From: Wukongibacter sp. M2B1
GTDB lineage: Bacteria; Bacillota; Clostridia; Peptostreptococcales; Caminicellaceae
Length of the DNA stretch: 24,000 bases
Assembly (NCBI RefSeq): GCF_050859025.1
Contig: NZ_CP138200.1
Location: 1,931,495-1,955,494, forward strand
Direction: 5' to 3'
Both the position numbers and the translations under genes were made by a program. The notes beneath the pieces are model-generated. The model was not told the DNA's origin. It was given only the letters and a program-made list of their open reading frames with translations, and did no database searches. Below, piece by piece: positions 2,011 to 20,430 of the stretch. Every line of letters starts with the position of its first letter. Position 1 is the first letter of the stretch.

Positions 2011-3595
2011 AGTACTCATTGCAGATGATGAGGCCAGAGAAAGAAATATAGTAAGGATTCTTTTAGAAAGAGAATATCCAGAAATGCTTATCTTTTATGA
2101 AGCTAGTAATGGTGAAGCAGCACTTAAGGAGTTTGAAGAAAAATTACCTCATTTAGTTATTATGGATATACGAATGCCAGGAATGAATGGAATTGAAGTT
2201 ATAAAAGAAATTAGAAAGAAGTCACTGGATGTATATATCATCATTGTTACAGCATATAATTACTTTGAATTTGCCAAGGAAGCGATTAGAATGGGAGTAA
2301 ACGATTTCATACTAAAACCCCCTTCACGGGAAAATTTTAATCAAGCAATTAGTAAATTTATGATGTTGATGAAAAAAAGGGAATCTAATAGAAAAGACCT
2401 GGAAGAAAACAATGAAAAAATAGGCTCATGGATTTCGATAATGAGAAATGATATGGCTATGGCGTTAGCCTATGGAGGAGTGGAAGAGGACCATATAGAT
2501 GATTATTTTGATATATTAAATATAAAGTATGACTGGGGCGTATGTATACTTACTAGTTTAGATACTAATAGTAATAGATTTTATAAAGAAAATGGATTGG
2601 ATATTAGATGGCATTTAGAAAAGATCAATAACTATATTGACAAATATATGAATAAAAACGCATTACAGTATATATCGGGTATACAGGGAAAAAGAGTAAT
2701 TGTATTTTTGTTCCTAAAGGAAAAGGAGAAGAAAGAGAGTAGGGAGAAATCCATAAAGGTTTCTCAAGATATACTTAGATATTTGAATTATGAATGTAGT
2801 TTTTCAATACAAATCGGTATTGGCTTAGGCTATCTATTACCAAGGAATTTGAATAAATCCTATGAAGAAGCCCTGGCAGCGTTAAAGTCTAAAACAAAAG
2901 TATGTCATAACGAACCTATTTATGTATATGAATCACAGCAGCAAGATATTGAAGATAATAGTATGAATTTTGAAAGCATGCTTGCAAAGAAGATTAGGGA
3001 AAGAGATAAAGATGAAGCCATAGATATATTGATTGAGACTTTAACCTATCTCAAAAAGAAGTATGGAAACAAACAAATGATAATAAAAGTAAGACTAATT
3101 GATTTCCTATCATCTATTAGTAAAAGTTGTTTATGTAAGGACAATGTTTCAAAGTATTTAGAGGATTTAAGTCCCATAATAAGCTTAGAAGAGTATCATG
3201 AGATAATAAAGTTTTCTCAAAGATTTGTTGAGAAATTGATAGAACATGTTGATAATCAGCAAAAGAAGAAAAGACATTTTATAATTGACAGGATAATTAC
3301 ATTTGTAAACGAAAATTATCATGAGGCCCTTTCTGTAGAAGAGATTGCTAAAAAATTTTCGATAAGTTCCTTTTATTTTAGTAGGCTGTTTAAGGAGTAT
3401 CAAAATATTAATTTTGTTGATTATATTACACAGGTACGAATAAAAAAAGCTATTGAACTATTTGATGATGAATCACTAAATATTAAAGAAATTGCACATT
3501 TAGTTGGATATCATGATGCCAATTATTTCAGTAGAGTTTTTAAAAAGAATATGGGATTAAGTCCAAAAAAATACCGTGACAGGTTTTTAATATAA
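2003..3595 (+). CDS. Response regulator with AraC-type DNA-binding domain (YesN-like)
   Basis: REC motifs: VLIADDE, VIMDIRMPGMNG, IIVTAY, FILKP. C-terminal double AraC HTH: IAKKFSISSFYFSRLFK ... IAHLVGYHDANYFSRVFKK. Start placed at GTG 2003 behind the GGAGGTGGA RBS, overlapping the kinase stop. The track ORF starts at 1988 in the same frame. Confidence 0.85.
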   Translation: MYKVLIADDEARERNIVRILLEREYPEMLIFYEASNGEAALKEFEEKLPHLVIMDIRMPGMNGIEVIKEIRKKSLDVYIIIVTAYNYFEFAKEAIRMGVNDFILKPPSRENFNQAISKFMMLMKKRESNRKDLEENNEKIGSWISIMRNDMAMALAYGGVEEDHIDDYFDILNIKYDWGVCILTSLDTNSNRFYKENGLDIRWHLEKINNYIDKYMNKNALQYISGIQGKRVIVFLFLKEKEKKESREKSIKVSQDILRYLNYECSFSIQIGIGLGYLLPRNLNKSYEEALAALKSKTKVCHNEPIYVYESQQQDIEDNSMNFESMLAKKIRERDKDEAIDILIETLTYLKKKYGNKQMIIKVRLIDFLSSISKSCLCKDNVSKYLEDLSPIISLEEYHEIIKFSQRFVEKLIEHVDNQQKKKRHFIIDRIITFVNENYHEALSVEEIAKKFSISSFYFSRLFKEYQNINFVDYITQVRIKKAIELFDDESLNIKEIAHLVGYHDANYFSRVFKKNMGLSPKKYRDRFLI

Positions 3596-3632
3596 TTAAA
3601 TTTGATTTTGAAATAGCACAATTATGTTATAG

Positions 3633-3667
3633 AAAAAATAGCACAGCATAATAGTGCTATTTTTTTA
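3633..3667 (+). terminator. Rho-independent terminator after the two-component operon
   Basis: AAAAAATAGCAC / GTGCTATTTTTT inverted repeat with a 9-nt loop, followed by a T-run. Confidence 0.7.
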
Positions 3668-3810
3668 TATGATAGAAATTTAAAAATTGAGAATTTTGAA
3701 ATAAGCAATAGGATTGTGAATGTTATAACAAGATATTCTAGAGTAGAAAGATCACTATCATGTTACTATGTTTATGAAAATCAAAGGATATCAAAAAGGG
3801 GATGTTTGAA

Positions 3811-4587
3811 ATGGAAAATGTATTATTAAAAGTGGATGGTAAAATAGCAGAGGTTACAATTAATAGACCTAAAGCACTAAATGCGTTAAATAGTCAAACT
3901 TTAAGGGAACTAGGAGAGGTAATAAATAAATTAACTGAAGATGAAGAAATAAAGGTGGTTATCATAACTGGAGCAGGAGAAAAAGCCTTTGTAGCTGGTG
4001 CTGATATTACAGAAATGCAAAGCTTAAATGCTATTGAAGGTAGAAAGCTTGCTAGACTGGCTCAGAAAGTATTTTCTGCAATAGAAACTATGCCTCAGAT
4101 TGTTATTGCGGCAGTTAATGGTTATGCTTTAGGAGGCGGATGTGAGTTGGCTATGGCATGCGATATACGTTTTGCTTCTGCCAATGCTAAGTTTGGTCAA
4201 CCTGAAGTTACTTTAGGTATTATTCCAGGTTTTGCAGGGACACAACGACTACCAAGATTAGTAGGTAGAGGAGTTGCAAAGGAGCTTATTATTGGTGGAG
4301 ATATGATAAATGCTGAGGAAGCATACCGTATTAATTTGGCAAACAAAATATATAATTTAGAAGAATTACTACCAAAGACTAGAGAATTTGCTGAAAAAGT
4401 ATTAAGCAGGGGAACATTGGCAGTTAGTTTTGCGAAAACAGCAATAAATAATGGTATGAATATGGATACTGAATCAGCTTATAATTATGAAGCAGATTTA
4501 TTTGGTTTATGTTTCGCTACAGAGGATCAAAAAGAGGGAATGAAAGCCTTTATTGAAAAGCGTAAAGCAGAGTTTAAGGGCTGCTAA
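3811..4587 (+). CDS. crt: Enoyl-CoA hydratase / 3-hydroxybutyryl-CoA dehydratase (crotonase)
   Basis: Near co-linear with clostridial Crt as I recall it: VTINRPKALNALN, TGAGEKAFVAGADI, AAVNGYALGGGCELAMACDIR, FGQPEVTLGIIPGFAGTQRL, EDQKEGMKAFIEKRK. ATG 3811 has better spacing from the GGGGA RBS than ATG 3802 (same frame). Confidence 0.9.
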   Translation: MENVLLKVDGKIAEVTINRPKALNALNSQTLRELGEVINKLTEDEEIKVVIITGAGEKAFVAGADITEMQSLNAIEGRKLARLAQKVFSAIETMPQIVIAAVNGYALGGGCELAMACDIRFASANAKFGQPEVTLGIIPGFAGTQRLPRLVGRGVAKELIIGGDMINAEEAYRINLANKIYNLEELLPKTREFAEKVLSRGTLAVSFAKTAINNGMNMDTESAYNYEADLFGLCFATEDQKEGMKAFIEKRKAEFKGC

Positions 4588-4667
4588 ATAATGGTGAAAT
4601 AGTAGTTTAAACCGACTAACTTATTTCTGTGATGTTCTTTTTCATATTTATTTTTCGTTCACTTAAT

Positions 4668-4716
4668 CAGCCTGTTTTTCAATGTCATTTTACAAAGAAA
4701 AAACAGGCTGTTTGAA
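4668..4716 (+). terminator. Rho-independent terminator after crt
   Basis: CAGCCTGTTTTTC ... GAAAAAACAGGCTG inverted repeat (16-nt loop), followed by TTTG. Confidence 0.6.
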
Positions 4717-4836
4717 ATCATCTAAATAAAATATGAAAATACATATGTCTATCCATTTATAAGACTAAATTATATAACTCATTAGTGCAAGAGATTAATT
4801 GATAAAGTTTCTAGGATAATAGAGAGGAGTGAAAAC

Positions 4837-6441
4837 ATGAAGCTTAAGGTATTGACTGCTTCTGAGGCAGCTAAGCTAGTAAAGGATGGAGATACAATAG
4901 CTACAAATGGATTTGTTGGTAGTTCTAGTCCAGAGACATTAACATGTGCATTGGAAAAACGTTTTCTAAATACGGGGAGTCCAAAGAACCTATGTTTAGT
5001 ATATGCCGCTGGACAGGGAGATGGTAACAATAGAGGAGCTAATCATTTTGCCCATGAGGGAATGGTTAAAAGAGTAATAGGAGGGCATTGGAACTTAGCA
5101 CCGAAGATGGGGGAATTAGCCATAAATAATAAAATAGAGGCATATAACCTGCCACAAGGTGTAATATCCCATATGTTCAGGGATATTGCTGCTGGAAAAA
5201 TCGGAACCATAACCCATGTGGGCTTAAATACATTTGTTGACCCTCGAGTAGAGGGTGGAAAGCTAAATGAAAAGACAGTAGAGGACATAGTAGAAGTAGT
5301 GAAAATTGGAGAATATGAGAGACTTCTTTATAAGGCCTTTCCTATAAATGTTTTATTTGTTAGGGGTACGACCTCCGATGAGAAAGGAAATATTACTTTA
5401 GAAAAGGAGCCAGGTCCATATGATGCAATGGCTATGGCTCAAGCTGTGAAAAATTCTGGAGGTATAGTAGTTGTACAGGTACAGAGAATTGTAAAAAGTG
5501 GAACATTAAATCCGTGGATAGTAAAAATTCCTGGGATATATGTTGATGCAGTAGTTTTATCAAAACCAGAGGAACATGAGCAGTGCTTTGGAGAAATGTA
5601 TAATCCATCATATTCAGGAGAGGTGAGAATTCCAGAAGGAAGTATGGAGCCTCTAGAATTGAACGAAAGAAAAATTGTTGCACGTAGAGCGGCTATGGAG
5701 CTTGAGCCAAATACAATAGTAAATTTAGGTATTGGCATGCCTGAGACAATAGCAATGGTTGCAAATGAAGAGGGAATAGGTAACTATATGAACTTAACTG
5801 TTGAGGCGGGTCCAATAGGAGGTATACCAGCAGGTGGACTAAGTTTTGGTGCTGCGACAAATCCCGATGCAATATTAGACCAATCAACACAGTTTGACTT
5901 CTATGATGGTGGAGGACTTGATCTTGCATTTCTAGGTTTAGCTCAGGCAGATTGTGATGGTAATGTAAATGTAAGTAAGTTTGGTCCTCGGATTGCGGGC
6001 TGTGGAGGATTTATAAATATAACACAAAATGCTAAGAAAGTATTTTATTGTGGTACTTTTATGGCTGGTGGGTTAAAAATTGATGTTAAGGGCGGAAAAC
6101 TTGTAATTCTACAAGAGGGTAAAGTTAGTAAGTTCATTGAAGCTGTAGAACAAATCACCTTTAGTGGAGTATATGCACGTAAAATTGAACAGCCTGTTAT
6201 GTATATAACTGAAAGGGCAGTATTTGAACTAAGAGAAGACGGGTTATATTTAACAGAAATTGCTCCAGGAATAGATTTACAAAAGGATATTTTGGATTTA
6301 ATGGGCTTTAAGCCTAAGATAGATGGCCAGCCTAAACTGATGGATGAACGAATTTTCTATCCAGAAGCAATGGGAATAAATAATAAGGACTTAGAGGCTG
6401 ATTCATTAGGAATGTCAATATGTACAGATAAGACATCCTAA
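4837..6441 (+). CDS. pct: Family I acyl-CoA:carboxylate CoA-transferase, propionate CoA-transferase (Pct)/YdiF-like
   Basis: 534 aa, alignable along its length with Clostridium propionicum Pct as recalled: [113 protein letters not shown]. Substrate range (propionate, lactate, butyrate, 3-hydroxy acids) cannot be read from the sequence. Confidence 0.85.
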
Positions 6442-6544
6442 GCTTTCATTATTGAAAATTCCATTGATAGGTAGACATTATTTTTGTAAAGAATTGACTT
6501 AAGAAAATCAATATGTATTTATGCTTTTTTAAGAGGAGGATAAC

Positions 6545-7849
6545 ATGTTTGATATATTAATTTTGATTTTAGCACTAATACTATTTTCCGTTCTTGCTTT
6601 TAGAAGAATAAGTGCTATAATCTTGGGCCCTGTAGTTTCAATATTTGTAATAGTTCTTGCTAGACTGCCTATGTTTGAAACTCTATTGGGACCATATATG
6701 ATCGCGGCAGCAGGGTATATTCAGAAGTTTTTCCTTGTGTTTTTTGTAGGAGCAATTTTTGGAGCCATTATGGAAGATACGAGAGCAGCCGAATCTATTG
6801 CTCGTGGTCTAGTCAAGATCACAAAGGGAAGATGGGCAGCTCCAGTTGTAATGATAATAACGGGGGTATTGACTTACGGAGGTGTTAGTGGTTTTGTCGT
6901 ATTCTTTGCGATGTACCCTATTGCCCTCCAATTGTTTAAAAATACTAACATCTCAAGAAGGCTAATACCGGCTGCTATTTCAGCAGGAGCATGGACATGG
7001 TCTATGAGTGGTCCAGGAAGCCCATCGATTCAAAATATTATACCAATGAGATATTTGGGAACAGGAAGTACTGCTGCTCTTATACCTGCTATAGTAGGAG
7101 CCTTAGGACAATTAATCCTAATATTTTTATGGCTTGAATATAGGGGGAAATCACTGCGAAGAAGAGGTTATGAGTTTAATGATCCGTCCCTGAAGGCATT
7201 AGATGAGGTGGCTGCAACGGCAGAAGATGGAATAGAATTACCTAATCCGTGGCTATCAGCGATACCAGCAATAGCAATTTTAGTAACATTTAATATACTT
7301 AAGTTACCCGTAGAAGGAGCAGTAACAATTGGGATCATATTGGGAATCCTTCTTTTGTGGAAACAAAGAAATGGTGCTAATGAATGGATATCAACATTAA
7401 ATAGAGGATCTATAAATTCAGCTACTGCTATTCTTAACACAGCCATAGTTGTTGGATTTGCAGGAGTAGTAAAGGTAACTACGGGATTTGATAAAATTAT
7501 TAGCAGTTTAAAGAATCTAAAGCTCTCCCCAATGATATTTGTAGCAATAACATCGGCTATAGCTTCTGGAGCAGCAGGTTCTGCATCTGGAGGCTTAGGA
7601 ATTGCCTATGAAGCATTAAAGGACACCTATGTAAACATGGGTGTAAGCCTAGAGTATGTTCACAGAATATCGGTAATTGCAGCAGGAACATTTGATACAT
7701 TACCACATCAAGGGGCACAGATTACCTTATTGGCCATATGTGGATTAACCCATAAAGAAGGTTACTTTGATATAGCTATAACTCAAATTATAATACCTAT
7801 ATTAGTATTATTAGCACTTGTAATACCAATGGCTTCTATGGGATTGTAG
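6545..7849 (+). CDS. GntP-family (ion transporter superfamily) organic-acid permease
   Basis: 434 aa, about 11-12 hydrophobic helices. The N-terminal half follows the GntP pattern (GAIFGAIMEDTRAAESIARGLVKITKGRWAAPVVMIITGVLTYGGVSGFVVFFAMYPIA). No terminator between pct and this gene, so they are probably co-transcribed. Confidence 0.65.
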   Translation: MFDILILILALILFSVLAFRRISAIILGPVVSIFVIVLARLPMFETLLGPYMIAAAGYIQKFFLVFFVGAIFGAIMEDTRAAESIARGLVKITKGRWAAPVVMIITGVLTYGGVSGFVVFFAMYPIALQLFKNTNISRRLIPAAISAGAWTWSMSGPGSPSIQNIIPMRYLGTGSTAALIPAIVGALGQLILIFLWLEYRGKSLRRRGYEFNDPSLKALDEVAATAEDGIELPNPWLSAIPAIAILVTFNILKLPVEGAVTIGIILGILLLWKQRNGANEWISTLNRGSINSATAILNTAIVVGFAGVVKVTTGFDKIISSLKNLKLSPMIFVAITSAIASGAAGSASGGLGIAYEALKDTYVNMGVSLEYVHRISVIAAGTFDTLPHQGAQITLLAICGLTHKEGYFDIAITQIIIPILVLLALVIPMASMGL

Positions 7850-7856
7850 TTGATGG

Positions 7857-7907
7857 AAAAAAATCATTGTGTAAAGTTAAGTCTTACTTTACATAATGAT
7901 TTTTTTC
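7857..7907 (+). terminator. Rho-independent terminator after the permease gene
   Basis: Long inverted repeat AAAAAAATCATTGTGTAAAGT / ACTTTACATAATGATTTTTTT (one G-T position), ending in a T-run. Confidence 0.7.
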
Positions 7908-8082
7908 TATATAAAGCTAGGGAATGAAAATAAAAGACATTTAGCGCATATTTCAAAAAATATAAAATCGACAAAAATAGTCAAAGGAACTATGCGAAAA
8001 TTGTCTAATATTAATAGAGTTAAAGAAGTGGTTTTGATTTAGAAGAATTTAAAGAAGAGAAATAACTAAGGGAGCGTTAGTG

Positions 8083-9324
8083 ATGCGAAGAAAAGAGATA
8101 GGGGTTTATTTAGCACTATGCATATTCATTTTTATATTTTTACTTGGAGCCTGTAGACCAAATCAGAAGGCAGAAGAATATACACCAAAGGATGGAGAAA
8201 TACAGCTAATCGTTAATGATGTATCTAGTAAGCCCGATGGAGATATTGACTTTGTAAGTGTTTATTATAAAGAGAATAATTGTCATATTAAATATCAAGA
8301 TATAGAATACGAAAGAAGTGGATCTAGAAAAAGAACAACCATTTCTTTAAAGAATATTGATTGGAATAGGTCTAATGAATACTATGTATATATCAATTTC
8401 AGAGAACGCTTATATACTACAAAAGTGACTAAAGAAGATGTTGGCAAAAGCATTGTGATTAATTATGATAGAGACAATTATGGTAAACTGCAGGTATCCA
8501 TACCATTTGCTAAGGAAAATTATAAAATTGAGGATATTTTAGTGCATTATGATACTAGTGATGGAGAATTAGATAGCATTTATACAGGGGCATTTAGCAA
8601 TGATATAGATCTACCCTATGGAAAATATGATATTCAGATTAATGCATATGATGATGAAAATGTATATATTCTTTATAAGGAAAATGTTGTTATTGAAAAG
8701 GATTATAACTTAATTGAGTTCAATAGGAGTGATATAGCTAAGCTAAATATAAAAATTGACTATGGTGAATATAATGATGCAAAGATGGTTTTACTTAGTT
8801 CTTGCCATAAAGCAGGTAAATTCTCTCAGATAACAAGTTTAAGTAGTTCAGCGATTAAAGAAATAGCACAATTTGATAGTCTCTATGTTTTAAAGGGCAA
8901 ACAAGATATTTATATTCATATAAGAAATCAAGGATGGGATTATACTTTAGATAAATATCTAGACGTAAGGGAAGATGTAGAAATAAATCTCGATTTAGAC
9001 TTTCAAGCTAAGATTGAGGGCAAAGAAACAAAATTTCCACCGGGATTTGAATTAAATAGAAATATTAAGCCAATGTTTTGTTTTTATGATGGATATGGGA
9101 ATCTACTAGCTAATATAAATGAACCGCCGGGTGAGATAGTTGAGGGAATTGTAGAGTTTAAGAGGGGAGATAAAATCGAAAGTGAGAAATTTAATGAATT
9201 AGATTACATTAAAAATATCACTACTCCCGAAGAAACAGGAAACTATGAAATGACTTTAAAGCTAATTGGAGGACCGATAGAAATAAAATCGACAACAAAA
9301 GATATAGTAATTGATTTGGATTAA
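8083..9324 (+). CDS. Putative lipoprotein, function unknown
   Basis: Signal peptide ending in the lipobox LLGAC (MRRKEIGVYLALCIFIFIFLLGAC). The rest is hydrophilic and beta-rich-looking with no motif I recognise. ATG 8083 is 7 nt from the GGGAG RBS; the track lists GTG 8080. Confidence 0.6.
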   Translation: MRRKEIGVYLALCIFIFIFLLGACRPNQKAEEYTPKDGEIQLIVNDVSSKPDGDIDFVSVYYKENNCHIKYQDIEYERSGSRKRTTISLKNIDWNRSNEYYVYINFRERLYTTKVTKEDVGKSIVINYDRDNYGKLQVSIPFAKENYKIEDILVHYDTSDGELDSIYTGAFSNDIDLPYGKYDIQINAYDDENVYILYKENVVIEKDYNLIEFNRSDIAKLNIKIDYGEYNDAKMVLLSSCHKAGKFSQITSLSSSAIKEIAQFDSLYVLKGKQDIYIHIRNQGWDYTLDKYLDVREDVEINLDLDFQAKIEGKETKFPPGFELNRNIKPMFCFYDGYGNLLANINEPPGEIVEGIVEFKRGDKIESEKFNELDYIKNITTPEETGNYEMTLKLIGGPIEIKSTTKDIVIDLD

Positions 9325-10574: not shown

Positions 10575-12083
10575 TTACAACTTCAAGTAAAACTCTAAAT
10601 CAAAATCTTTCATACCACTATCTTTGTTTTTGGTATATATAATTTTGTCAATGATGCTACTCAAAAAAATATTTTTTTCTTCGGCGTCAACTTCATAATA
10701 ATATGTTTTTAAGAATTCAATACTATTATTAATAAATGGTAACTGGTTTTCTTCAATATTTTTTATCTTCCTTAAACTAGATATTTTCTTCTGTAATTTT
10801 TCTATATCATTATTAGCAACTTCGATTTTGAAAGATAAGGTGTTCATTCTGTTTAGGAAAGTAGCATTATTATATATACCTTGTTCTAATAAATCATACA
10901 ATTTTTCCTTTTGTAGATTTAGTGTTTTAATAAGCTTAATATTTGATTGGATAGTATCCTTTATAACTTTCAATTCAGCACTTTCTACATTTTTCTTGTT
11001 TTTTATAAATTCAAATCTTATTTTTTCTAATTCTTCAATAACAATTTTTACAACTCTCTCTTCAATTAAATATATATAACTTGATTTTACTTTACCACAA
11101 TCCTTGTAACATCTAATATTATCAGGCTTATTCTTTTGAGTTCGGATAGTCATTGTACGGCCACAACCACCACATACAATTAGACCAGCCAGTGGATTTC
11201 TACGCTTTCTATTATCTCGTTTCCTAGGGTTATGTCTTTCTTTTGCAAGTGATTGGGCTTTTTCAAAAATTGTTTCATCTATAATCGCGTCATGTTTACC
11301 TTCAAATACTATCCAATCTTTTCTGTCTTGAAGTCTAGATATTTTTTTACCATCATTGTCGTATCTCTCGATCTTTTTACCCCAAACAATTTTACCCGTA
11401 TAGACAGGGTTTTTCAATATAGTTCTTACAGTAGTTCTATCCCAATTCAAATTATTGTTAGCATTAGGAATTTTATTTTCAATTAAATATTTAGCTATTT
11501 TAGAGTCTCCAAAATCTTGATTTACATACAGATGAAAAATCAATTTAACAACATTAAATTGAGTTTCATGGAATATTAATGTCTTGCCTTCTTTTTTATA
11601 TCCAAAAGGAGCAACAGCACCAATGTAATTACCTTCTTCAAGACTTTTCATCCTCCCACGATGAAGACGTTTCTTTATAATTTTCAGTTCTCTCCGAGCC
11701 ATAAATGCTTCAAACTCACTAAATTCTTCATCAAACTCATTGCTAAGATCATAAATTTTTCTTGGCGTAATGATCTTTGTATCATATCCCTTAAAAGTCT
11801 CCAGAATAAGTCCCTGTTCACGCATATTACCCCTACCAAGCCTATCTATATCCATAACTAATACTGCCTCGTATTTGCCATCCTCGACTTCTCTAAGCAA
11901 TTCCAACATTTTAGGTCGCCTAGTGATAGATTCACCCGAAACAACTTCTTCTTTTATATCTATTATAGTATAATTATTTTTTTGTGCATATGCCAATAGG
12001 GTAGTTCGATGCCTGCTTAAAACTTCCTCATTGGACATATTCTCTTCAGCTCTAGATTTTCTTAAGTAAATACAAACATTCAT
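10575..12083 (-). CDS. Large serine recombinase (phage integrase)
   Basis: 502 aa. The N-terminal resolvase catalytic domain has the YLRKSR nucleophile motif and VMDIDRLGR. It is followed by a recombinase domain, a zinc ribbon (CGGCG ... C-x3-C) and a C-terminal coiled coil. Confidence 0.9.
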   Translation of the reverse strand: MNVCIYLRKSRAEENMSNEEVLSRHRTTLLAYAQKNNYTIIDIKEEVVSGESITRRPKMLELLREVEDGKYEAVLVMDIDRLGRGNMREQGLILETFKGYDTKIITPRKIYDLSNEFDEEFSEFEAFMARRELKIIKKRLHRGRMKSLEEGNYIGAVAPFGYKKEGKTLIFHETQFNVVKLIFHLYVNQDFGDSKIAKYLIENKIPNANNNLNWDRTTVRTILKNPVYTGKIVWGKKIERYDNDGKKISRLQDRKDWIVFEGKHDAIIDETIFEKAQSLAKERHNPRKRDNRKRRNPLAGLIVCGGCGRTMTIRTQKNKPDNIRCYKDCGKVKSSYIYLIEERVVKIVIEELEKIRFEFIKNKKNVESAELKVIKDTIQSNIKLIKTLNLQKEKLYDLLEQGIYNNATFLNRMNTLSFKIEVANNDIEKLQKKISSLRKIKNIEENQLPFINNSIEFLKTYYYEVDAEEKNIFLSSIIDKIIYTKNKDSGMKDFDLEFYLKL

Positions 12084-13017: not shown

Positions 13018-13024
13018 TGTCGAA
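13018..13024 (+). promoter_or_regulatory. Perfect Spo0A-box heptamer (TGTCGAA), proximal site about 60 bp upstream of the agr-like operon
   Basis: Context: AAAATGTCGAATTT. Same orientation as the distal site, 120 bp away. Confidence 0.35.
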
Positions 13025-13080: not shown

Positions 13081-13965
13081 ATGAATATGTATGTAGATAT
13101 TAATAAAATATTGCTAATAGGTATGCCAGAAACACTTTTAAATATACTATTTGGATTACTAATTTATAAAGGAAGAGAATCTCTAAAAGAAAAAAGTAAT
13201 ATTTGGAAGATTTCATTAATATCTATTGTATTCCCATTATTAGCTTTTAGTATAAAAGGTTACTTAAATAATAGCATTCAAATTCAAATGATACCTGCAT
13301 TGATTATCTTAATTATTTTTATAAAAGTATTGTGGAAAACGAATGTCAGGTGTGCTTTTTTAATGAGTGCAATGGCAACTTTCATAACGTCTATAGGTGA
13401 AATTGCAACAATGCAACCTGTATCAGGTTATATTAAAAATATAATTGCTTTACATGGCTTTATGCATATAAAAGCATTAATAATATGGACTATTCCAACA
13501 AGAATAATTCAATTAATTACTATTTTAGTAGTATATAAATTCAATTTAACATTTAAGAATAATAAATTGCTTTATGGTGAATGGAATGAATTATCTTCAA
13601 CACAGAAAATGACAACTTATAGCTTATTCATACATTTACTAATATCAATCACTATTAGTACAGGCTATGTTGAAATCTTTGTAAAAGCTATGAATAGAAA
13701 TATGTCTATTGACTTTATTAAAATCCCATTAATTGTAATGCTGTTTGGCTCACTTTACATTATCTTTTCAGCATTAAATATATTATTTAGACAAACATTG
13801 TTGGAAGACATAAAAGGTTTATTTTCCCAGGGGGCAAGTAAATTATTCGAAAATATGCTTGAAGCTAGTAACGAGGAAAGACTTTTAGATTACAAGTTGC
13901 AACTTGATAATAAAATGAAAGAATTATCATTAAATGAAAGGAGAGAATCGAATGAAAAAGTTTAG
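13081..13965 (+). CDS. Polytopic (6-7 TM) membrane protein resembling the sensor module of AgrC-type receptors but lacking any kinase domain
   Basis: 294 aa. Six to seven hydrophobic helices span the first ~240 residues. A ~55-aa charged, coiled-coil-like tail follows (…EERLLDYKLQLDNKMKELSLNERRESNEKV) with no His, no H-box and no N/G boxes. The 3' end overlaps the agrD-like start by 14 nt. Confidence 0.5.
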   Translation: MNMYVDINKILLIGMPETLLNILFGLLIYKGRESLKEKSNIWKISLISIVFPLLAFSIKGYLNNSIQIQMIPALIILIIFIKVLWKTNVRCAFLMSAMATFITSIGEIATMQPVSGYIKNIIALHGFMHIKALIIWTIPTRIIQLITILVVYKFNLTFKNNKLLYGEWNELSSTQKMTTYSLFIHLLISITISTGYVEIFVKAMNRNMSIDFIKIPLIVMLFGSLYIIFSALNILFRQTLLEDIKGLFSQGASKLFENMLEASNEERLLDYKLQLDNKMKELSLNERRESNEKV

Positions 13966-14092
13966 CAAGTATTTTCGATATTTATTAGTAGGAACAGGAG
14001 TGCTTCTAATATTTCAAGCTTTAGCTACAAATCCATCAATGGCTTGCCTAGTTGGAGCACATCAAAATGAAACTCCAGATTGCATGAAATAA
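13952..14092 (+). CDS. agrD: AgrD-like autoinducing-peptide precursor (46 aa; below the ORF-track size cutoff)
   Basis: Translation: MKKFSKYFRYLLVGTGVLLIFQALATNPSMACLVGAHQNETPDCMK. AAAGGAGAG RBS lies 7 nt upstream. It has a basic plus hydrophobic leader, a Cys followed by 4 residues, then an HQ-x-E-x-P tail. C. perfringens AgrD has the same layout (…ATSACLWFTHQPEEP…), as does C. difficile AgrD1 (…CPWIIHQPKVP…), both as I recall them. Confidence 0.7.
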   Translation: MKKFSKYFRYLLVGTGVLLIFQALATNPSMACLVGAHQNETPDCMK

Positions 14093-14156
14093 TAGCATTA
14101 CAAATAGATTAATATAAATGAAAGGGCCCTTCATTTATAAAATTAGGTGATATCTA

Positions 14157-14834
14157 ATGATTAAAGCAGTTTTTATTGATGATACAATGGAATATTTGCA
14201 ATGTATTCAAGAATATATGGGAGACTACTTTAAAGAAAAAGGAATATCATTCAAAACTTATTTGATGAAAGACAAGAATGATGATATAAGAATAGAAAAT
14301 GAAATAGTAAAAGAACAACCTGATCTTATATTCTGTGATATGGCTATGCCCCATTGTGACGGCTCTACGCTAATCAAGAGAATCACAAAGATTTATAAAC
14401 CCACAACAATTCTAATTAGTGCAGTTGAGAAAATCAATATCCACAAAGATGAGTTTGATTATATACTAAGGAAACAAATGGATCTTGATATTCTTAAGGA
14501 AGCAATAAATTTAATTATTAGAAGTTTTGAACTTCAAGAAGAACTTACGATTGATGAAATTTTATCAATTGAGTTTCCATACTTGAAATATACTGAAAGA
14601 ATGTATCTAAGAGAAATTGTAAGAAAGTTCAAAGATGTTGAAAATCCTAAAAAAGTTAAAGTTTCTGATATTTCTAGAGCAACAAATAAAGAAGTACATA
14701 CAACAATAGATAGAATTAACAGATTTATAAAAAAAATGTTTAAAGAGAAAATTGATAGAGACTTATTTTTATTTGAGCTATTGAAAGTAGTTTATAAAAG
14801 GGGTTTTCCGAATGATAAACGAAACAGCGAGTAA
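14157..14834 (+). CDS. Response regulator with Spo0A-like C-terminal DNA-binding domain
   Basis: The REC domain has all key residues: FIDD, DLIFCDMAMPHCDG (compare Spo0A DIIMPHLDG), ILISA, YILRK. The C-terminal half parallels Spo0A_C: ERMYLREIV vs GYLYLREAI, and NKEVHTTIDRINRFIKKMF vs TTASRVERAIRHAIEVAW. No LytTR domain. Confidence 0.55.
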   Translation: MIKAVFIDDTMEYLQCIQEYMGDYFKEKGISFKTYLMKDKNDDIRIENEIVKEQPDLIFCDMAMPHCDGSTLIKRITKIYKPTTILISAVEKINIHKDEFDYILRKQMDLDILKEAINLIIRSFELQEELTIDEILSIEFPYLKYTERMYLREIVRKFKDVENPKKVKVSDISRATNKEVHTTIDRINRFIKKMFKEKIDRDLFLFELLKVVYKRGFPNDKRNSE

Positions 14835-15426
14835 AATTAGCAAACTTTTATCAGGACCTGTTTCTGATTCAAAATATTTTGAGGAGTTTTCTAAAGATGA
14901 GATAGAGAATATTATTACATATAATATGGTTAACAATATAAAACAGTGGATTTGGATAATAGCTCTTTTACTATCCACTTGGTTATTACTAATTGCTGGC
15001 ATTGATATAAGGTTTACAACATTGATTATATTTATAACGATTGTAGCATTTCGAAGCAGATTTGGAGGATATCACGCGGATTCTGCAAAAGTATGTATAA
15101 TAATAAGCACAATTATTCCAATTGTCTGTGCATATATAACCATATTTTTAGATTTCAATTTATATCTTATTGTTACTGTGTATATATTTGCATATTTTAC
15201 AGCATTTAAAAAAGGTGTTGTGGACCATCCAAATCGTAGGTTTCAAGAAGGTAACAAAATATTAAATTTAGAAATGAAAAGAAGGCTTTTCAAGACAGGC
15301 GTTATTTTACTAGTTGCCATTAATATAATCCATATACATCTGTTTTTAATTGGCTATGTTTCAATAAGCGATGCAATGACATTGGGAACATTGATTAGTT
15401 TTATAAACTTATATTTTGGGAAATAG
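14812..15426 (+). CDS. agrB: AgrB-family membrane peptidase/cyclase
   Basis: 204 aa with about 5-6 TM helices. It has the hallmark catalytic motif FRSRFGGYHADSAKVC (AgrB consensus R..aGG.HA.s...C with the essential His and Cys). A downstream VDHPNRRF ... KRR basic loop resembles AgrB (a.tpnkP...k.kk). Overlaps the regulator gene by 23 nt. Confidence 0.8.
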   Translation: MINETASKISKLLSGPVSDSKYFEEFSKDEIENIITYNMVNNIKQWIWIIALLLSTWLLLIAGIDIRFTTLIIFITIVAFRSRFGGYHADSAKVCIIISTIIPIVCAYITIFLDFNLYLIVTVYIFAYFTAFKKGVVDHPNRRFQEGNKILNLEMKRRLFKTGVILLVAINIIHIHLFLIGYVSISDAMTLGTLISFINLYFGK

Positions 15427-15515
15427 AGATTTTTTTAGAAAGGGTACCTAAATCATCATTTGGATTCGTATTCTTATTATAGGGACTCTAAGCTTTTCTA
15501 AAGGGGGGAGGATTG

Positions 15516-15653
15516 ATGGATAGGGATAAAATAAAGAAAGACACTGAATCTCAATCTAATAAGGATGCAAAGAAAGAAATATGTACCAATCTCCCAAAGA
15601 CTTTTTCTAGAATAGTTGATGATGAAATAATCATAACTAAAAAGAGAGAATAA
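15516..15653 (+). CDS. 45-aa hydrophilic peptide ORF downstream of agrB, function unknown
   Basis: Translation: MDRDKIKKDTESQSNKDAKKEICTNLPKTFSRIVDDEIIITKKRE. A very strong RBS (AAGGGGGGAGG) lies 4-5 nt upstream. It ends just before the bidirectional terminator. One Cys, and no signal or amphipathic leader. Confidence 0.45.
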   Translation: MDRDKIKKDTESQSNKDAKKEICTNLPKTFSRIVDDEIIITKKRE

Positions 15654-15654
15654 T

Positions 15655-15682
15655 AAATACCTCAGTTGTGTCTGAGGTATTT
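15655..15682. terminator. Bidirectional terminator between the agr-like operon and the convergent repressor gene
   Basis: Perfect 11-bp inverted repeat AAATACCTCAG / CTGAGGTATTT with a 6-nt loop. Confidence 0.75.
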
Positions 15683-15693
15683 CACATTGGAAA

Positions 15694-16086
15694 CTATTTA
15701 TTTTTATATTTCTTTTTTACTTCTATATATATCTTTAATCCTTCAATTAAGTCATCCGGATCTATTTCTTCCTTTTTCATTTTTTTTGCAAATTCAATAT
15801 ATTTAATATTTTGAGAAGCAAATAGTTCACGGTACTCTTCTGGTACTAGTGGAGTCAATTCTTCTTTACTATATGTTTGCTTTGATGGATTTCTATCATT
15901 CGTTCTACATAGTAAATAATCTATTGATACATCAAAGTAATCTGCCATCTTTCTTAAAGTATTAGAATCCGGATCTCTTTTCCCTTTTTCATAGGCACTA
16001 ATAGTTTGCTGAGTAACTTGGAATACTTCAGCAAATTCACTTTGACTTAATCCTTTTTCTTTTCTCAACATTGCAATCCTATTCAT
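15694..16086 (-). CDS. CI-like phage repressor (XRE-family HTH)
   Basis: MNRIAMLRKEKGLSQSEFAEVFQVTQQTISAYEKGKRDPD... is a classic HTH_3, followed by a ~65-aa C-terminal domain. Start placed at ATG 16084-16086 behind an AAAGGTGA RBS. The 184-aa track ORF merely reads on through the operator region. Confidence 0.85.
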   Translation of the reverse strand: MNRIAMLRKEKGLSQSEFAEVFQVTQQTISAYEKGKRDPDSNTLRKMADYFDVSIDYLLCRTNDRNPSKQTYSKEELTPLVPEEYRELFASQNIKYIEFAKKMKKEEIDPDDLIEGLKIYIEVKKKYKNK

Positions 16087-16119
16087 ATAATCACCTTTTT
16101 TTTTATTCCTTTCTATTAT

Positions 16120-16134
16120 ACAACTTTTAGTGGT
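16120..16134. promoter_or_regulatory. Degenerate fourth operator copy next to the leftward (repressor) promoter
   Basis: ACAACTTTTAGTGGT matches ACAAC-N5-GTTGT with one arm mismatch. It touches a minus-strand TATAAT at 16115-16120. Confidence 0.4.
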
Positions 16135-16167
16135 TAAAGAAAAACAGAAAAATGTTGTATTTTTGTA

Positions 16168-16196
16168 TTGACTACAACAAATAGTTGTGATATTAT
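16168..16196 (+). promoter_or_regulatory. Rightward early promoter (PR-like)
   Basis: TTGACT (16168-16173), a 17-bp spacer, then TATTAT (16191-16196; TATAAT also at 16194-16199). The spacer is occupied by operator O1. Confidence 0.55.
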
Positions 16197-16215
16197 AATT
16201 ACAACAAATAGTTGT
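16174..16215. promoter_or_regulatory. Two identical 15-bp palindromic operators (16174-16188 and 16201-16215) flanking the -10 of PR
   Basis: ACAACAAATAGTTGT occurs twice exactly, 27 bp centre to centre, between the divergent repressor and cro-like genes. Confidence 0.75.
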
Positions 16216-16237
16216 TATTGTTGAAGGAGGTGTTATC

Positions 16238-16471
16238 TTGAGAGACATTTTAATAAATCTACGTGGTAAAAAAAGTCAATCAGAAGTTGCTGAAAAACTT
16301 GGAATCACTCAACAGTTTCTTAGTGCCATAGAAAGAGAAGAGAAGAACCCCAGCATTACCATTATGCGGAAATTTGAGGAACACTATAATAAGAGCATGG
16401 TTGAGCTGTTTCCCGATATTTTTTTAAGAGAAAATACAACAAATAGTTGTAAAATAGCAACAATTAATTAA
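16238..16471 (+). CDS. Cro-like XRE-family HTH protein
   Basis: 77 aa. TTG start 7 nt after the GAAGGAGG RBS. HTH: KSQSEVAEKLGITQQFLSAIEREEKNPS. Divergent from the repressor gene. Confidence 0.8.
   Translation: MRDILINLRGKKSQSEVAEKLGITQQFLSAIEREEKNPSITIMRKFEEHYNKSMVELFPDIFLRENTTNSCKIATIN
16436..16450. promoter_or_regulatory. Third exact operator copy inside the 3' end of the cro-like gene
   Basis: ACAACAAATAGTTGT again, 235 bp downstream of the 16201 copy. Confidence 0.65.
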
Positions 16472-18074: not shown

Positions 18075-18968
18075 TTGATTATAGGTATTGACAAAGGTAG
18101 TGCGTACACAAAGACTAGCAAGGATGTAATTATTAAAAGTACGGTACGAGATTTAAGTGAAGATGACATAAATCTAAATGATAGCCTATTCATTGAAATG
18201 GATGGAGAAGAACACTTTGTAGGTGGAGAAGGTAGTTTTGCAACTGATCTTAAGAAAGCAGAGCATAAGAGTACTAGAATCCTCACTTATACAGCTATAG
18301 CAAAGAGTTTTGAGGAAACTCTTATAAATACTGATTTAGTATTAGGACTGCCAATAGGGCATTATTCACGCAATAAAGATAAAATGAAGGAACTGTTTAA
18401 TGGGAAGTCTGCGACGATTAGCATTAATGGTAATCAGAAAGTAATTAAAATCATGAATGTTGAAGTATTTCCTGAGTGTGCAGCTGCTAAATTCACCCAA
18501 AATATAGATAGTGGACTGTTCATTGATATAGGAGGACTCAGTGTAGACAATGCTCTATTCAAAAATGGAAAGCTCGAAAAACACTCTACATTTACTATGG
18601 GAACCATGAAACTACTTTCTAAAATCGCAGATTATCTAAATGCAGAACATGATTTATCCCTAACAGAATGGGGAGCTGAAGAAATACTAAAAGATGGATT
18701 GACCATAGATGGCGAGGTAATAGACATAAAGTCAGGCACAGAGGAAGTTATCAGAGATCATGTTAAAAAGATTCTTGAAAGAATTAAGCTTCAATATGAT
18801 ACGAGGATGATTAAAAACATAATCTTTACAGGCGGCGGAAGCCTTATGTGCTTTGATTTTTTTAAGAAATACATACCACAAGCTACGAGGATGGAAAATA
18901 CTCAATTTAGCAATGCTAAAGGCTTTGAACTTATAGGAAGAAAATTGTTTGGTGGTAACGATGCTTAA
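18075..18968 (+). CDS. parM: ParM/StbA-family actin-like ATPase
   Basis: TTG start after the TAGGAGGGA RBS. Actin-fold motifs: phosphate-1 IIGIDKGSAYTKT, phosphate-2 LFIDIGGLSVDNALF, adenosine IIFTGGGSLM. Confidence 0.75.
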   Translation: MIIGIDKGSAYTKTSKDVIIKSTVRDLSEDDINLNDSLFIEMDGEEHFVGGEGSFATDLKKAEHKSTRILTYTAIAKSFEETLINTDLVLGLPIGHYSRNKDKMKELFNGKSATISINGNQKVIKIMNVEVFPECAAAKFTQNIDSGLFIDIGGLSVDNALFKNGKLEKHSTFTMGTMKLLSKIADYLNAEHDLSLTEWGAEEILKDGLTIDGEVIDIKSGTEEVIRDHVKKILERIKLQYDTRMIKNIIFTGGGSLMCFDFFKKYIPQATRMENTQFSNAKGFELIGRKLFGGNDA

Positions 18969-19317
18969 TGAGGAGATATTTAATTTAAAAATTGCTCCTA
19001 GCAATAGAAAAGATAAAACCTTTACAAAATTTGAAGCTTACATATTCCTTATGGTTAATAAATCACAAACTCAAGAAATGAGTATTTATTTTCTATCACA
19101 AACATGGAATTGGAGTCGTAATAAAGTTAAAAGATTTTTAGGGCAATTAGAGAAAAGGGACATAGTAAAGAACAGTGAAAAGAGCATAAAAAAGGACATA
19201 GCGAAAAGCCAGAATACTAATATTTCAAGCAATATCAAAGACACAAAAAAGGACAATAAAAAGAACATATCAAAAGACATTGATTTAGGAAGCATACAAG
19301 CAATTATGAATATGTGA
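18961..19317 (+). CDS. Winged-helix-like DNA-binding protein with K-rich repetitive tail; candidate ParR-type adaptor
   Basis: The ATG overlaps the parM stop (ATGCTTAA). The N-terminal ~65 aa (FTKFEAYIFLMVNKS...LSQTWNWSRNKVKRFLGQLEKRDIV) looks like a wHTH. The tail is KKDIAKSQNTNISSNIKDTKKDNKKNISKDI. The adaptor role is inferred from position only. Confidence 0.45.
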   Translation: MLNEEIFNLKIAPSNRKDKTFTKFEAYIFLMVNKSQTQEMSIYFLSQTWNWSRNKVKRFLGQLEKRDIVKNSEKSIKKDIAKSQNTNISSNIKDTKKDNKKNISKDIDLGSIQAIMNM

Positions 19318-19353
19318 CAAACGGATACCAAAAGGTTAGTGGAGGTGAGGAAC

Positions 19354-19539
19354 TTGAGATCTAATTTAGCTAAACTGGGGCGGGAGAAGAAACCCCGCCA
19401 ACTAAAAAACAAAGATGTCTATCTAATTGGTCTACTTCTCCTAATATTAGGATTAACAATATTTATATTAAATATACACCTAATTTTGCCTCCTATCATA
19501 TATCGGAGCTTAGGGGCATCTGCCCCGGCTCCACTTTAG
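19354..19539 (+). CDS. Possible 61-aa single-TM protein
   Basis: TTG 19354 sits a few nt after a strong GGAGGTGAGG RBS. There is a basic N-terminus, then VYLIGLLLLILGLTIFILNIHLILPPII. The region also has non-coding-like palindromes, so coding status is uncertain. Confidence 0.3.
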   Translation: MRSNLAKLGREKKPRQLKNKDVYLIGLLLLILGLTIFILNIHLILPPIIYRSLGASAPAPL

Positions 19540-19554
19540 AAAGAAGGTGATAGG

Positions 19555-20430
19555 TTGAATAAGTTAAGGGATAAAAGAAAGAAAAACTGGTTTTACTTAG
19601 AAAATGCTCTTGTAGATAGAGAAGATTTATCATCAAATGAAAAATTAATTTACATGGCTCTAGCAAGATATGCAAATGAAGATGATGAAGCTTTTCCAAG
19701 CTACAACACAATATCTAAAAAGACATCTTTAGGTAAGAGAACCATAATAAACGGAGTAAAGAGTCTAGTCGAAAAGGGACTGGTAAAGAAAACCATAAGA
19801 TTTAAAAATTCGAAAGAAAATAATTCAAATCTATACACATTATTTTCTGTTGAACTACCTAGTGAAATATACGCACCACCCAGTGCATCAGTTACACCAC
19901 CTAGTGAAATGATTGCACCACCCCCTAGTGCATCAGTTACACCCCCTAGTGCACCAGTTGCACCCAAAAAAGACTTAAATAAAAATACTAATATTATTAA
20001 AAATACTAACTTAAAAAATAAAACATCTACGCAAATTGAAAATTTACGTATCAGGTATTCCGAGGATCAATTAAAAACTATTGATGATTACATAGATATT
20101 CTAAGGTGGACTAGGAAACATGGAAAGATAGCAGATAGTGTGATTCTAAAAATTTATGAGGAATGGGATAAGTTCAAAACATCGGTCGTGATATATGCAT
20201 TGAAAGTATATGTAGAGAATCCTAACCATCATGATAAAAAAGAGAATTATTGCTATGGAATAATGAGAAATGCAACAGCAGAACAGGTTGCAGGGAAATC
20301 CCAAGACAGTAAAAGTAAGACTCACAAAACTCCTAAACGTAAGAATAATAAATTTAATAAGGGTGCTGACAGGATAAGTCAGCAATACACGAATGAAGAA
20401 TTAGAGAAAAAGTTAGGCTTAAGAAAATAG
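19555..20430 (+). CDS. Phage replication initiator / replisome-organizer-like protein (N-terminal wHTH, Pro-rich repeat linker, DnaD-like C-terminal region)
   Basis: TTG start after the AAGGTGA RBS. The N-terminus (LSSNEKLIYMALARYANEDDEAFPSYNTISKKTSLGKRTIINGVKSLVEKGLV) is typical of phage/plasmid replication wHTH proteins. The C-terminal part (IDILRWTRKHG...YALKVYVEN...YCYGIMRN) resembles DnaD-type domains. Confidence 0.6.
   Translation: MNKLRDKRKKNWFYLENALVDREDLSSNEKLIYMALARYANEDDEAFPSYNTISKKTSLGKRTIINGVKSLVEKGLVKKTIRFKNSKENNSNLYTLFSVELPSEIYAPPSASVTPPSEMIAPPPSASVTPPSAPVAPKKDLNKNTNIIKNTNLKNKTSTQIENLRIRYSEDQLKTIDDYIDILRWTRKHGKIADSVILKIYEEWDKFKTSVVIYALKVYVENPNHHDKKENYCYGIMRNATAEQVAGKSQDSKSKTHKTPKRKNNKFNKGADRISQQYTNEELEKKLGLRK
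19858..19965 (+). repeat. Imperfect tandem direct repeats (~42-45 bp, about 2.5 copies) inside the initiator gene
   Basis: CCTAGTGAAAT-N-GCACCACC(C)-(C/T)AGTGCATCAGTTACACC occurs twice, followed by a partial copy CCTAGTGCACCAGTTGCACCC. It encodes PSEIYAPPSASVTPPSEMIAPPPSASVTPPSAPVAP. Confidence 0.8.

Follow-up and report, generated by a model that had tools for sequence, protein, structure and literature searches.

Mechanistic understanding of phage-encoded peptide communication has so far been confined to RRNPP-type systems (arbitrium, Rap-Phr), and a prophage locus of Wukongibacter sp. M2B1 now makes three further questions directly testable: whether the temperate phages that infect anaerobic spore-formers count lysogens of their own kind, whether they tie this count to sporulation, and how an AgrC-type sensor could transmit a signal without phosphotransfer. 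The locus lies in a stretch of 24,000 nucleotides (nt) of NZ_CP138200.1, which we call the window and whose coordinates are used here unless another locus is named. It contains an open reading frame (ORF) of only 46 codons, in which an initial annotation had recognized a precursor of the AgrD type. We found that this ORF most likely encodes a divergent member of the AgrD family, the precursor of a cyclic peptide signal of ribosomal origin, in a prophage four-gene operon for an AgrC-like sensor, the AgrD-like peptide, a Spo0A-like regulator and AgrB (Table 1). On the functional side, all statements made about this module are in silico inferences.

The translation of the ORF (MKKFSKYFRYLLVGTGVLLIFQALATNPSMACLVGAHQNETPDCMK) was exactly the one given in the initial annotation. 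The good ribosome-binding site and the overlap with the upstream stop claimed there were also found: the site AAAGGAGAG has a GGAG core 8 nt before the ATG, and the ORF shares 14 nt with the end of the upstream gene. An alternative in-frame ATG at 13934, corresponding to a version of 52 amino acids (aa), lacks a Shine-Dalgarno sequence, and the NCBI call is the 46-aa version. The ORF had been described as unannotated, which holds only relative to the gene track used at the time, as NCBI lists the identical product as "hypothetical protein [Wukongibacter sp. M2B1]".

Related loci with genomic context were L001 to L007 and L009 to L011. L003 duplicates L002 and L010 duplicates L009, leaving 8 distinct loci, and counts of nine homologues refer to these 8 and the window. 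All 8 carry an ORF of 41-44 aa directly after or overlapping the stop of the sensor gene (that of L007, with a GTG start, had been missed by the gene finder), and the peptide start overlaps the sensor stop in 6 of the 10 loci fetched (5 of the 9 distinct ones). A leave-one-out hidden Markov model (HMM) made from 7 homologous peptides, with the window sequence excluded, was searched against the 429 six-frame stop-to-stop fragments of the window. It retrieved the window ORF with 42.3 bits (E 1.5e-12), the next best fragment scoring 8.1 bits (E 0.07), and the motif C-x4-[HGNDRY]-[QET]-x3-P-[DNE] occurred once in the window. The ribosome-binding site and the MKK start of the peptide gene are conserved, and the peptides of the window and L001 share 48% identity while their flanking intergenic DNA is unalignable except for GGGCCC. 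Because the leave-one-out model matched the ORF this well and found no other good match in the window, a chance ORF is excluded, and on this comparative evidence we regard the 46-codon ORF as a real, conserved gene. A word-indexed protein search with the window peptide returned the peptide itself as its sole match, and exact-sequence look-ups of the window peptide, of AgrB and of P0003, a paralogue of the sensor, gave no match.

In the literature, what defines an AgrD is a leader followed by a core that contains a Cys and by a follower that has a conserved Pro and is recognized by AgrB (PMC8251862, PMC6534674, PMC9388083, PMC3901668). The AgrD-type layout claimed for the window peptide, in which a hydrophobic leader precedes a Cys, four variable residues and a charged, Pro-containing follower, turned out to be conserved across the homologues, with AgrB encoded in the same operon. 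The leader (MKKFSKYFRYLLVGTGVLLIFQALATNPSMA) has a similar form in 8 of 9 homologues and ends in a conserved small-x-Ala (or Asn) directly before Cys. Invariant in all nine peptides are this Cys and a Pro at +10 from it, followed by an acidic or Asn residue, and the four residues after Cys are hypervariable (Table 1). The second Cys of the window peptide, Cys44 in the follower, is present in only 3 of 9 homologues. Model TIGR04223 (AgrD family cyclic lactone autoinducer peptide; trusted cutoff 19) scored L002 with 22.6 bits, L004 with 25.1 and L001 with 16.4, and AgrB with its catalytic His/Cys pair is encoded in the same operon in every complete locus. In S. aureus AgrD-I (C-DFIM-DEVEVP) the Pro likewise stands at +10, and AgrB cuts after the fourth ring residue; S. 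aureus AgrD has a length of 46 aa, equal to that of the window precursor. The annotated AgrD of phage phiCDHM1 (GenBank record) ends in ...NTTSVWYINQPKMPKSLKKKL, and its Ser-x4-N-Q-x3-P has the register of Cys-x4-H-Q-x3-P in the window peptide. The ring CLWFT and the conserved C-terminal Pro of C. perfringens, which the initial annotation had quoted for comparison, agree with the literature (PMC6534674).

The same annotation had placed the peptide gene next to agrB, which had to be corrected: the upstream gene that it overlaps encodes the AgrC-like sensor, and agrB lies 720 nt downstream, past the response regulator gene. ORFs downstream of agrB were considered as a second AgrD candidate (15513-15653 in the window, 36-38 aa in L001, L002 and L007) and rejected; they are mutually unrelated and lack the Cys/Pro motif.

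The partners of the peptide are recognizable to different degrees. The catalytic pair of AgrB, GGYH(88)-x6-C(95), has its His and Cys conserved in 6 of 6 aligned orthologues, and agrB overlaps the regulator gene by 23 nt. The regulator keeps all phospho-site residues (D8, D9, D61, S88 and K106), which are invariant among five orthologues. It gave no LytTR match and in this differs from canonical AgrA. The Spo0A_C domain (PF08769) scored 24.5 bits in the L005 orthologue (cutoff 25) and 97.9 bits in the L004 regulator, with no significant match to the window regulator, and an hhalign comparison of the five module regulators with the Spo0A-type regulator of L004 extended over the full length (probability 97.7, E 1.5e-12). 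We read the C-terminal domain of the regulator, on this profile evidence, as a diverged Spo0A_C-like DNA-binding domain. L004 itself (Petroclostridium sp. X23, CP124862; 3454-6362) represents a variant of the module, in which the gene for a full Spo0A_C regulator precedes that of the sensor and a 102-aa protein takes the regulator's place between peptide and AgrB; the module adjoins a tyrosine integrase and an ImmA/HTH pair.

The 294-aa sensor showed no match to Pfam (HATPase included), NCBIfam or PHROG. Its AlphaFold2 model was all-helical, with a predicted local distance difference test (pLDDT) value of 91 and seven long helices ahead of a helical tail on the cytoplasmic side, and the positive-inside rule, applied by eye, put the N-terminus outside and the tail inside; a comparison of this short-form model with PDB folds found no significant match. 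An exhaustive profile search yielded 60 sensor-family cluster representatives in two size classes of ~280 and ~410 aa. In the long form P0019 (417 aa; model pLDDT 79.5) the C-terminal domain and the preceding helices best matched the cytoplasmic module of S. aureus AgrC (6E95/6E52, E 7e-6), and the domain superposed on the AgrC ATP-binding domain 4BXI with a TM score of 0.66 (root mean square deviation 3.1 A, 129 columns). Further fold matches of P0019 were other histidine-kinase catalytic domains, with DivL at rank 34. Pfam and PDB sequence-profile searches with the long form found no similarity, and the link of the sensor family to AgrC is structural only, drawn from predicted models.

Canonical AgrC has a DHp His and a GHKL ATPase domain. 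The window sensor has no His after residue 185, so none in its cytoplasmic part, and no ATPase domain; nor did the sensor-family alignments show a conserved His anywhere, in short or long forms (members P0016, P0019, P0021 and others). The family looks like a pseudo-kinase lineage of AgrC, and the window sensor is an AgrC descendant that cannot be a kinase, because it has neither the phospho-accepting His nor the ATPase domain. By analogy, it might be comparable to pseudo-kinases such as DivL, and we favour a transduction by ligand-dependent binding or release of the regulator, or by control of a regulator that would be phosphorylated by host sporulation kinases or acetyl phosphate. The AgrC-like protein would be the obvious receptor candidate for the peptide. 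The tight coupling of sensor and peptide genes and the hypervariable ring fit co-evolving pairs of ligand and receptor, nine sequences being too few for co-variation. The search with the sensor also found P0003, a paralogue with 64% identity that is encoded elsewhere in this genome, and, on an assembled contig, a protein with 48% identity. P0003 suggests a second copy of the module in Wukongibacter sp. M2B1, perhaps on another prophage, and raises the question whether there is cross-talk between the copies or whether they form separate specificity groups.

Upstream of the sensor gene we found two copies of a repeat, spaced 120 nt apart, that contain Spo0A boxes (TGTCGAA). This sequence occurred 3 times in the window (0.9 expected), 2 of the 3 within the 256 bp that precede the sensor gene. 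Counted over 200 bp upstream of the sensor gene per locus, 8 loci had 11 boxes in 1,600 bp (0.12 expected) versus 6 in the remaining 78.7 kb (Poisson P~2e-18). In the window, L001, L002, L004, L005, L009 and L011 an exact box precedes the sensor start by 63-97 nt, and L006 has a box with one mismatch at -92; the L007 sequence ends too near the sensor gene for this analysis. Four loci have a second box further upstream. This enrichment argues that the module is very probably controlled by a Spo0A-type protein. Judging from the boxes, the binder could be the module's own regulator, which would give an autoinduction loop like that at agr P2, the host's Spo0A~P, as an input of the sporulation state, or both. 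We identified no regulator target beyond the module's own promoter.

The weak hairpin that had been described behind the peptide gene is indeed present, and indeed weak (-6.8 kcal/mol, z -1.4). As an intrinsic terminator it was rejected, as it has no U-tract and was not called by a terminator scan, and an Rfam search assigned it to no family, giving only a sub-threshold chance match to a snoRNA. Of the 9 loci, 7 have a stem-loop at this place behind the peptide gene; the stems are unrelated in sequence, and those of other loci are much stronger (L009 z -4.6, L004 z -3.0, L007 z -3.0). Plausibly, it could adjust how much transcript of sensor and peptide there is relative to that of regulator and AgrB, an effect on stoichiometry like the one suggested in the initial annotation. 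The loop centre GGGCCC (AAAGGGCCCTT) is identical in the window (14122-14130) and in L001 (about 1500-1512), with different surrounding stems, and could be a protein-binding palindrome instead of, or besides, an RNA loop.

As to the product of the module, we infer the cleavage sites, the ring size, the chemical form of the product, the receptor assignment, the signal transduction and the biological output. A ring of five residues (Cys32-Ala36) is suggested by the register of the Pro at +10. The hydrophobic leader (aa 1-31) would direct the precursor to the membrane, where AgrB (His88/Cys95) would recognize the [HG][QE]-x3-P-D motif, remove the follower and move the Ala36 carbonyl onto the Cys32 thiol, producing a five-residue thiolactone. 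The leader would then be cut at small-x-Ala|Cys, a pattern that looks like a site for type I signal peptidase; the protease that cuts the leader in S. aureus is MroQ and not SpsB (PMC9388083). Clostridial autoinducing peptides (AIPs) without an N-terminal extension are homodetic cyclopeptides that arise from a cryptic thiolactone by an S-to-N acyl shift (Molloy et al. 2021, PMC8251862), and the tail-less product predicted here might likewise rearrange to homodetic cyclo(CLVGA). The initial annotation had proposed a CLVGA thiolactone. Its Cys-x4 core is upheld; a stable thiolactone is not the safest prediction of the mature form, because the leader ends just before Cys and tail-less clostridial AIPs rearrange to the lactam. 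The safest prediction would be CLVGA minus water, with [M+H]+ of 444.2275, a value calculated by hand from the standard masses of the residues. Sensing of the extracellular peptide would fall to the co-translated seven-helix AgrC-like protein, which would most likely control the Spo0A-like regulator by binding or release, or act on regulator molecules that host kinases have phosphorylated. This regulator and/or host Spo0A~P might then act at the TGTCGAA boxes of the module promoter, resulting in autoinduction, and presumably also on phage or host genes relevant to lysogeny or sporulation.

Several points weigh against the assignment to the AgrD family and against this scheme. The window peptide gave no match to Pfam AgrD (PF05931) or TIGR04223 even at E<=10; an AgrD HMM search, which the initial annotation had named as a check, thus failed for the peptide itself and succeeded for its homologues L002 and L004, which exceed the TIGR04223 cutoff. 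Because there is no direct match to a family model, the AgrD membership of the window peptide rests on these homologues. The gene order is sensor, peptide, regulator, AgrB (C'-D-R-B) and not agrBDCA, so that agrB is not next to the peptide gene. There are only about 9 loci, none of them from a characterized phage. Searches of deposited phages and plasmids with the module, AgrB and the sensor (megablast, tblastn) found no close relatives, and pattern scans that used the sensor or AgrB as query found no match in IMG/VR, in GTDB representative genomes or in JGI metagenomes. The weakest part of the model is that the sensor has no kinase elements, yet the regulator keeps its phospho-site. Characterized AIP rings usually contain bulky hydrophobic residues, and the ring predicted here contains Gly and ends in Ala. 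Finally, the ring could have 6 residues, as in the clostridial AIP Rc-AIP1 with CWFWSY (PMC8251862).

The overlap of peptide start and sensor stop in 6 of the 10 loci fetched (5 of 9 distinct) suggests coupled, equimolar synthesis. Together with a leader that could cross the membrane once, this would also suit a small membrane-resident protein that modulates the AgrC-like sensor stoichiometrically, in the manner of MgrB or SafA, and is not a secreted signal. We consider such a modulator unlikely, as it leaves unexplained the invariant Cys and the follower with Pro at +10, the hypervariable four residues between them, the matches to the AgrD HMM and the obligatory AgrB partner. The peptide might instead be a small lipoprotein or Sec-secreted peptide, whose lipobox-like x-x-Ala-Cys would be processed by Lgt and LspA to a lipidated mature peptide of 15 residues, AgrB being uninvolved. 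Its n-region (MKKFSK), hydrophobic core and invariant Ala-Cys indeed resemble a type II signal peptide, and VASAC of L001 fits the permissive PROSITE lipobox pattern. However, Asn at -2 (L004, L005, L007) and Pro at -4 (window) are atypical for lipoboxes, L009 has Asn-Cys, and the L011 leader is charged and non-hydrophobic. The strongest conservation moreover follows the Cys, in the register of the AgrD follower, two homologues pass the AgrD HMM cutoff, AgrB always co-occurs, and bona fide clostridial AgrDs look equally like signal peptides, all of which makes a lipoprotein very improbable. A chance frame, or a leader ORF with a purely cis-regulatory role for the downstream regulator gene, might be suspected from a short, A+T-rich ORF with a hairpin behind it, but is effectively refuted by the comparative data, namely an amino acid motif conserved across 9 loci with highly diverged DNA, the HMM E-value of 1.5e-12 and the conserved ribosome-binding site and MKK start.

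If the peptide is an AgrD-family precursor, it shares with AgrD/AgrB of Firmicutes the membrane-targeting leader, the Cys plus four variable residues, the charged follower with Pro, and an AgrB with His/Cys in the operon. Its ring residues are hypervariable between homologues, as they are in agr specificity groups. It differs in that the window peptide lies below detection by the family HMMs, and the order is sensor-peptide-regulator-AgrB and not agrB-agrD-agrC-agrA. The window follower is short (10 aa; consensus [HG][QE]-x3-P-D-x-[LM]-[KR]), and the ring is small and aliphatic (LVGA), usually ending in Ala. The closest phage precedent is the agr3 locus of C. difficile phage phiCDHM1, with the order agrC-agrB-agrD, no response regulator and no known role for the phage (Hargreaves et al. 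2014, PMC3901668). The phiCDHM1 class is also the only one of phage agr genes cited in a review from 2025. There, too, agr genes are carried by a temperate clostridial phage, and AgrD has the register [C/S]-x4-x-Q-x3-P (SVWYI-NQPKMP). In contrast, the AgrC of phiCDHM1 is complete, including HATPase_c, and the agr genes there adjoin the lysis genes and run on the strand opposite to these, whereas here a kinase-less sensor and a Spo0A-like regulator belong to a module abutting the integrase and cI/cro; at the tblastn level no sequence similarity between phiCDHM1 and the window module was detectable.

Among clostridial cyclic AIPs, Rc-AIP1 of Ruminiclostridium cellulolyticum also comes from a Clostridia host, and the product predicted here has no N-terminal extension, so that its thiolactone would be cryptic. 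These cyclic AIPs control sporulation, and the regulator here is Spo0A-like. Rc-AIP1 differs in being an aromatic-rich 6-mer (CWFWSY) from a chromosomal and not phage-borne locus, while the product here is only predicted. The arbitrium system AimP/AimR and phage Rap-Phr of the RRNPP class are comparable only in how they work, with a phage peptide and its receptor at the lysogeny region and a possible link to sporulation. The arbitrium peptide is linear, imported by Opp and bound by a cytoplasmic tetratricopeptide repeat (TPR) receptor, whereas the window peptide is predicted to be cyclized by AgrB and sensed at the membrane.

New in the present locus are the conserved four-gene architecture with a kinase-less AgrC descendant and the Spo0A-like instead of LytTR regulator. 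Also new are the 0A boxes in the promoter, the placement at the lysogeny switch and a distinct AgrD subfamily with small-residue rings. We tentatively propose, as a possibility more than an expectation, that clostridial prophages and mobile elements carry a self-contained agr-derived circuit, in which a phage-private cyclic pentapeptide, a kinase-less AgrC sensor and a Spo0A-like readout on 0A boxes with feedback would act as a membrane-sensed counterpart of arbitrium that sets lysogeny maintenance or induction, or hijacks sporulation, by lysogen density, with P0003 as a separate specificity group. With about 60 related sensor clusters, the locus provides a candidate circuit that is both compact and complete and whose ligand can be tested (predicted m/z 444.2275).

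The setting of the module differs between loci. In the window, L001 and L002 it stands between integrase and cI/cro; in L005, L006 and L011 its neighbour is an MrpR-type recombinase, and in L009 it is TubZ. This varied placement among mobile elements suggests a role in the element's life-cycle decision or in manipulation of host sporulation. Two related elements (L005 649-2049, L011 1-996) carry, upstream of the module, a PemK-family toxin, a ~226-aa protein with TPR repeats and a peptide of 43-44 aa that has a hydrophobic leader and ends in ...DPPD(A/S)...ERVA; the last two may be a second, RRNPP-like pair of receptor and peptide.

Table 1. Features of the window, Spo0A boxes of related loci (locus coordinates) and AgrD-like peptides of the nine distinct loci.
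Feature	Position	Strand	Remarks
AgrD-type precursor, 46 aa	13952..14092	+	leader aa 1-31 (13952-14044), predicted core Cys32-Ala36 CLVGA (14045-14059), follower HQNETPDCMK (14060-14089), stop 14090-14092
AgrC-like membrane sensor, short form, 294 aa	13081..13965	+	seven predicted transmembrane helices and cytoplasmic helical tail
Response regulator, 225 aa	14157..14834	+	PF00072 3.3e-8; TIGR02875 Spo0A N-terminal similarity
AgrB peptidase/cyclase, 204 aa	14812..15426	+	PF04647 4.2e-17; NF002210 9.4e-7
Four-gene operon	13081-15426	+	order sensor / peptide / response regulator / AgrB; to the right of lipoprotein gene
Distal copy of 15-nt direct repeat, GCAAAACATGTCGAA	12890..12904	+	Spo0A box TGTCGAA 12898-12904; 183 nt upstream of sensor start codon
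Proximal copy of repeat, GCAAAAAATGTCGAA	13010..13024	+	Spo0A box 13018-13024; 63 nt upstream of sensor start, ~30 nt upstream of -10-like TACTAT
Spo0A boxes of related loci	L001 351/433; L002 1347/1416; L004 4212/4235; L005 4916; L009 3911; L011 3916		
Weak stem-loop	14113..14139	+	10-bp A/U stem, 14113-14122 with 14130-14139, loop AGGGCCC; between peptide and regulator genes
Large serine recombinase (prophage integrase)	10575..12083	-	Resolvase, Recombinase and Zn_ribbon_recom domains; marks prophage left end
Superinfection-exclusion-like lipoprotein, predicted, 216 aa	12174..12824	-	between integrase and agr-like module
cI-like helix-turn-helix (HTH) repressor, divergent	15694..16248	-	HTH_3 at 4e-19; PHROG transcriptional regulator
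cro-like HTH gene	16238-16471	+	PHROG transcriptional regulator; pairs with divergent cI-like gene
Phage partition and replication genes	18075-20430		PHROG
Peptide of window			leader end and Cys SMAC; ring residues LVGA; follower HQNETPDCMK
Peptide of L001			leader end and Cys ASAC; ring residues WHVA; follower GQDPVPDRLK
Peptide of L002			leader end and Cys AAAC; ring residues SGGA; follower HQEETPDCMR
Peptide of L004			leader end and Cys SNAC; ring residues TGGW; follower HQPQKPDCL
Peptide of L005			leader end and Cys ANAC; ring residues ASMA; follower GETEIPDILK
Peptide of L006			leader end and Cys SSAC; ring residues SRTF; follower GETPIPNTLRGN
Peptide of L007			leader end and Cys INAC; ring residues SYMA; follower GERTRPDKLK
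Peptide of L009			leader end and Cys TTNC; ring residues ALMA; follower RTRRLPDMMK
Peptide of L011			leader end and Cys KKC; ring residues TALC; follower YEEEIPESMKSEE

The left 9.7 kb of the window hold host-type genes (487-9324) for a Cache histidine kinase, an AraC-type regulator, enoyl-CoA hydratase, CoA transferase and a transporter, and the prophage starts to the right of these metabolic and two-component genes, at 10.5 kb. The predicted lipoprotein encoded between integrase and module has two repeats of the Rv1352/Rv1906c type (NF053833, 1.6e-21) and, by PHROG, resembles superinfection-exclusion proteins. The pair of cI-like and cro-like genes that directly follows the module is a lysogeny switch, an arrangement next to the module that was also found in L001 and L002. 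Between these two divergent genes we observed a 19-nt direct repeat, TACAACAAATAGTTGT(G/T)AT, at 16173-16191 and 16200-16218, which contains the palindrome ACAACAAATAGTTGT and is probably an operator. The true start of the listed cI ORF (184 aa) is probably the internal Met55 (MNRIAMLRKEKG...). The sole consensus terminator-like hairpin of the region (15655-15682, minus strand) has an 11-bp stem, AAATACCTCAG/CTGAGGTATTT; it separates the end of agrB from that of the cI-like gene and is likely to terminate the convergent transcripts.

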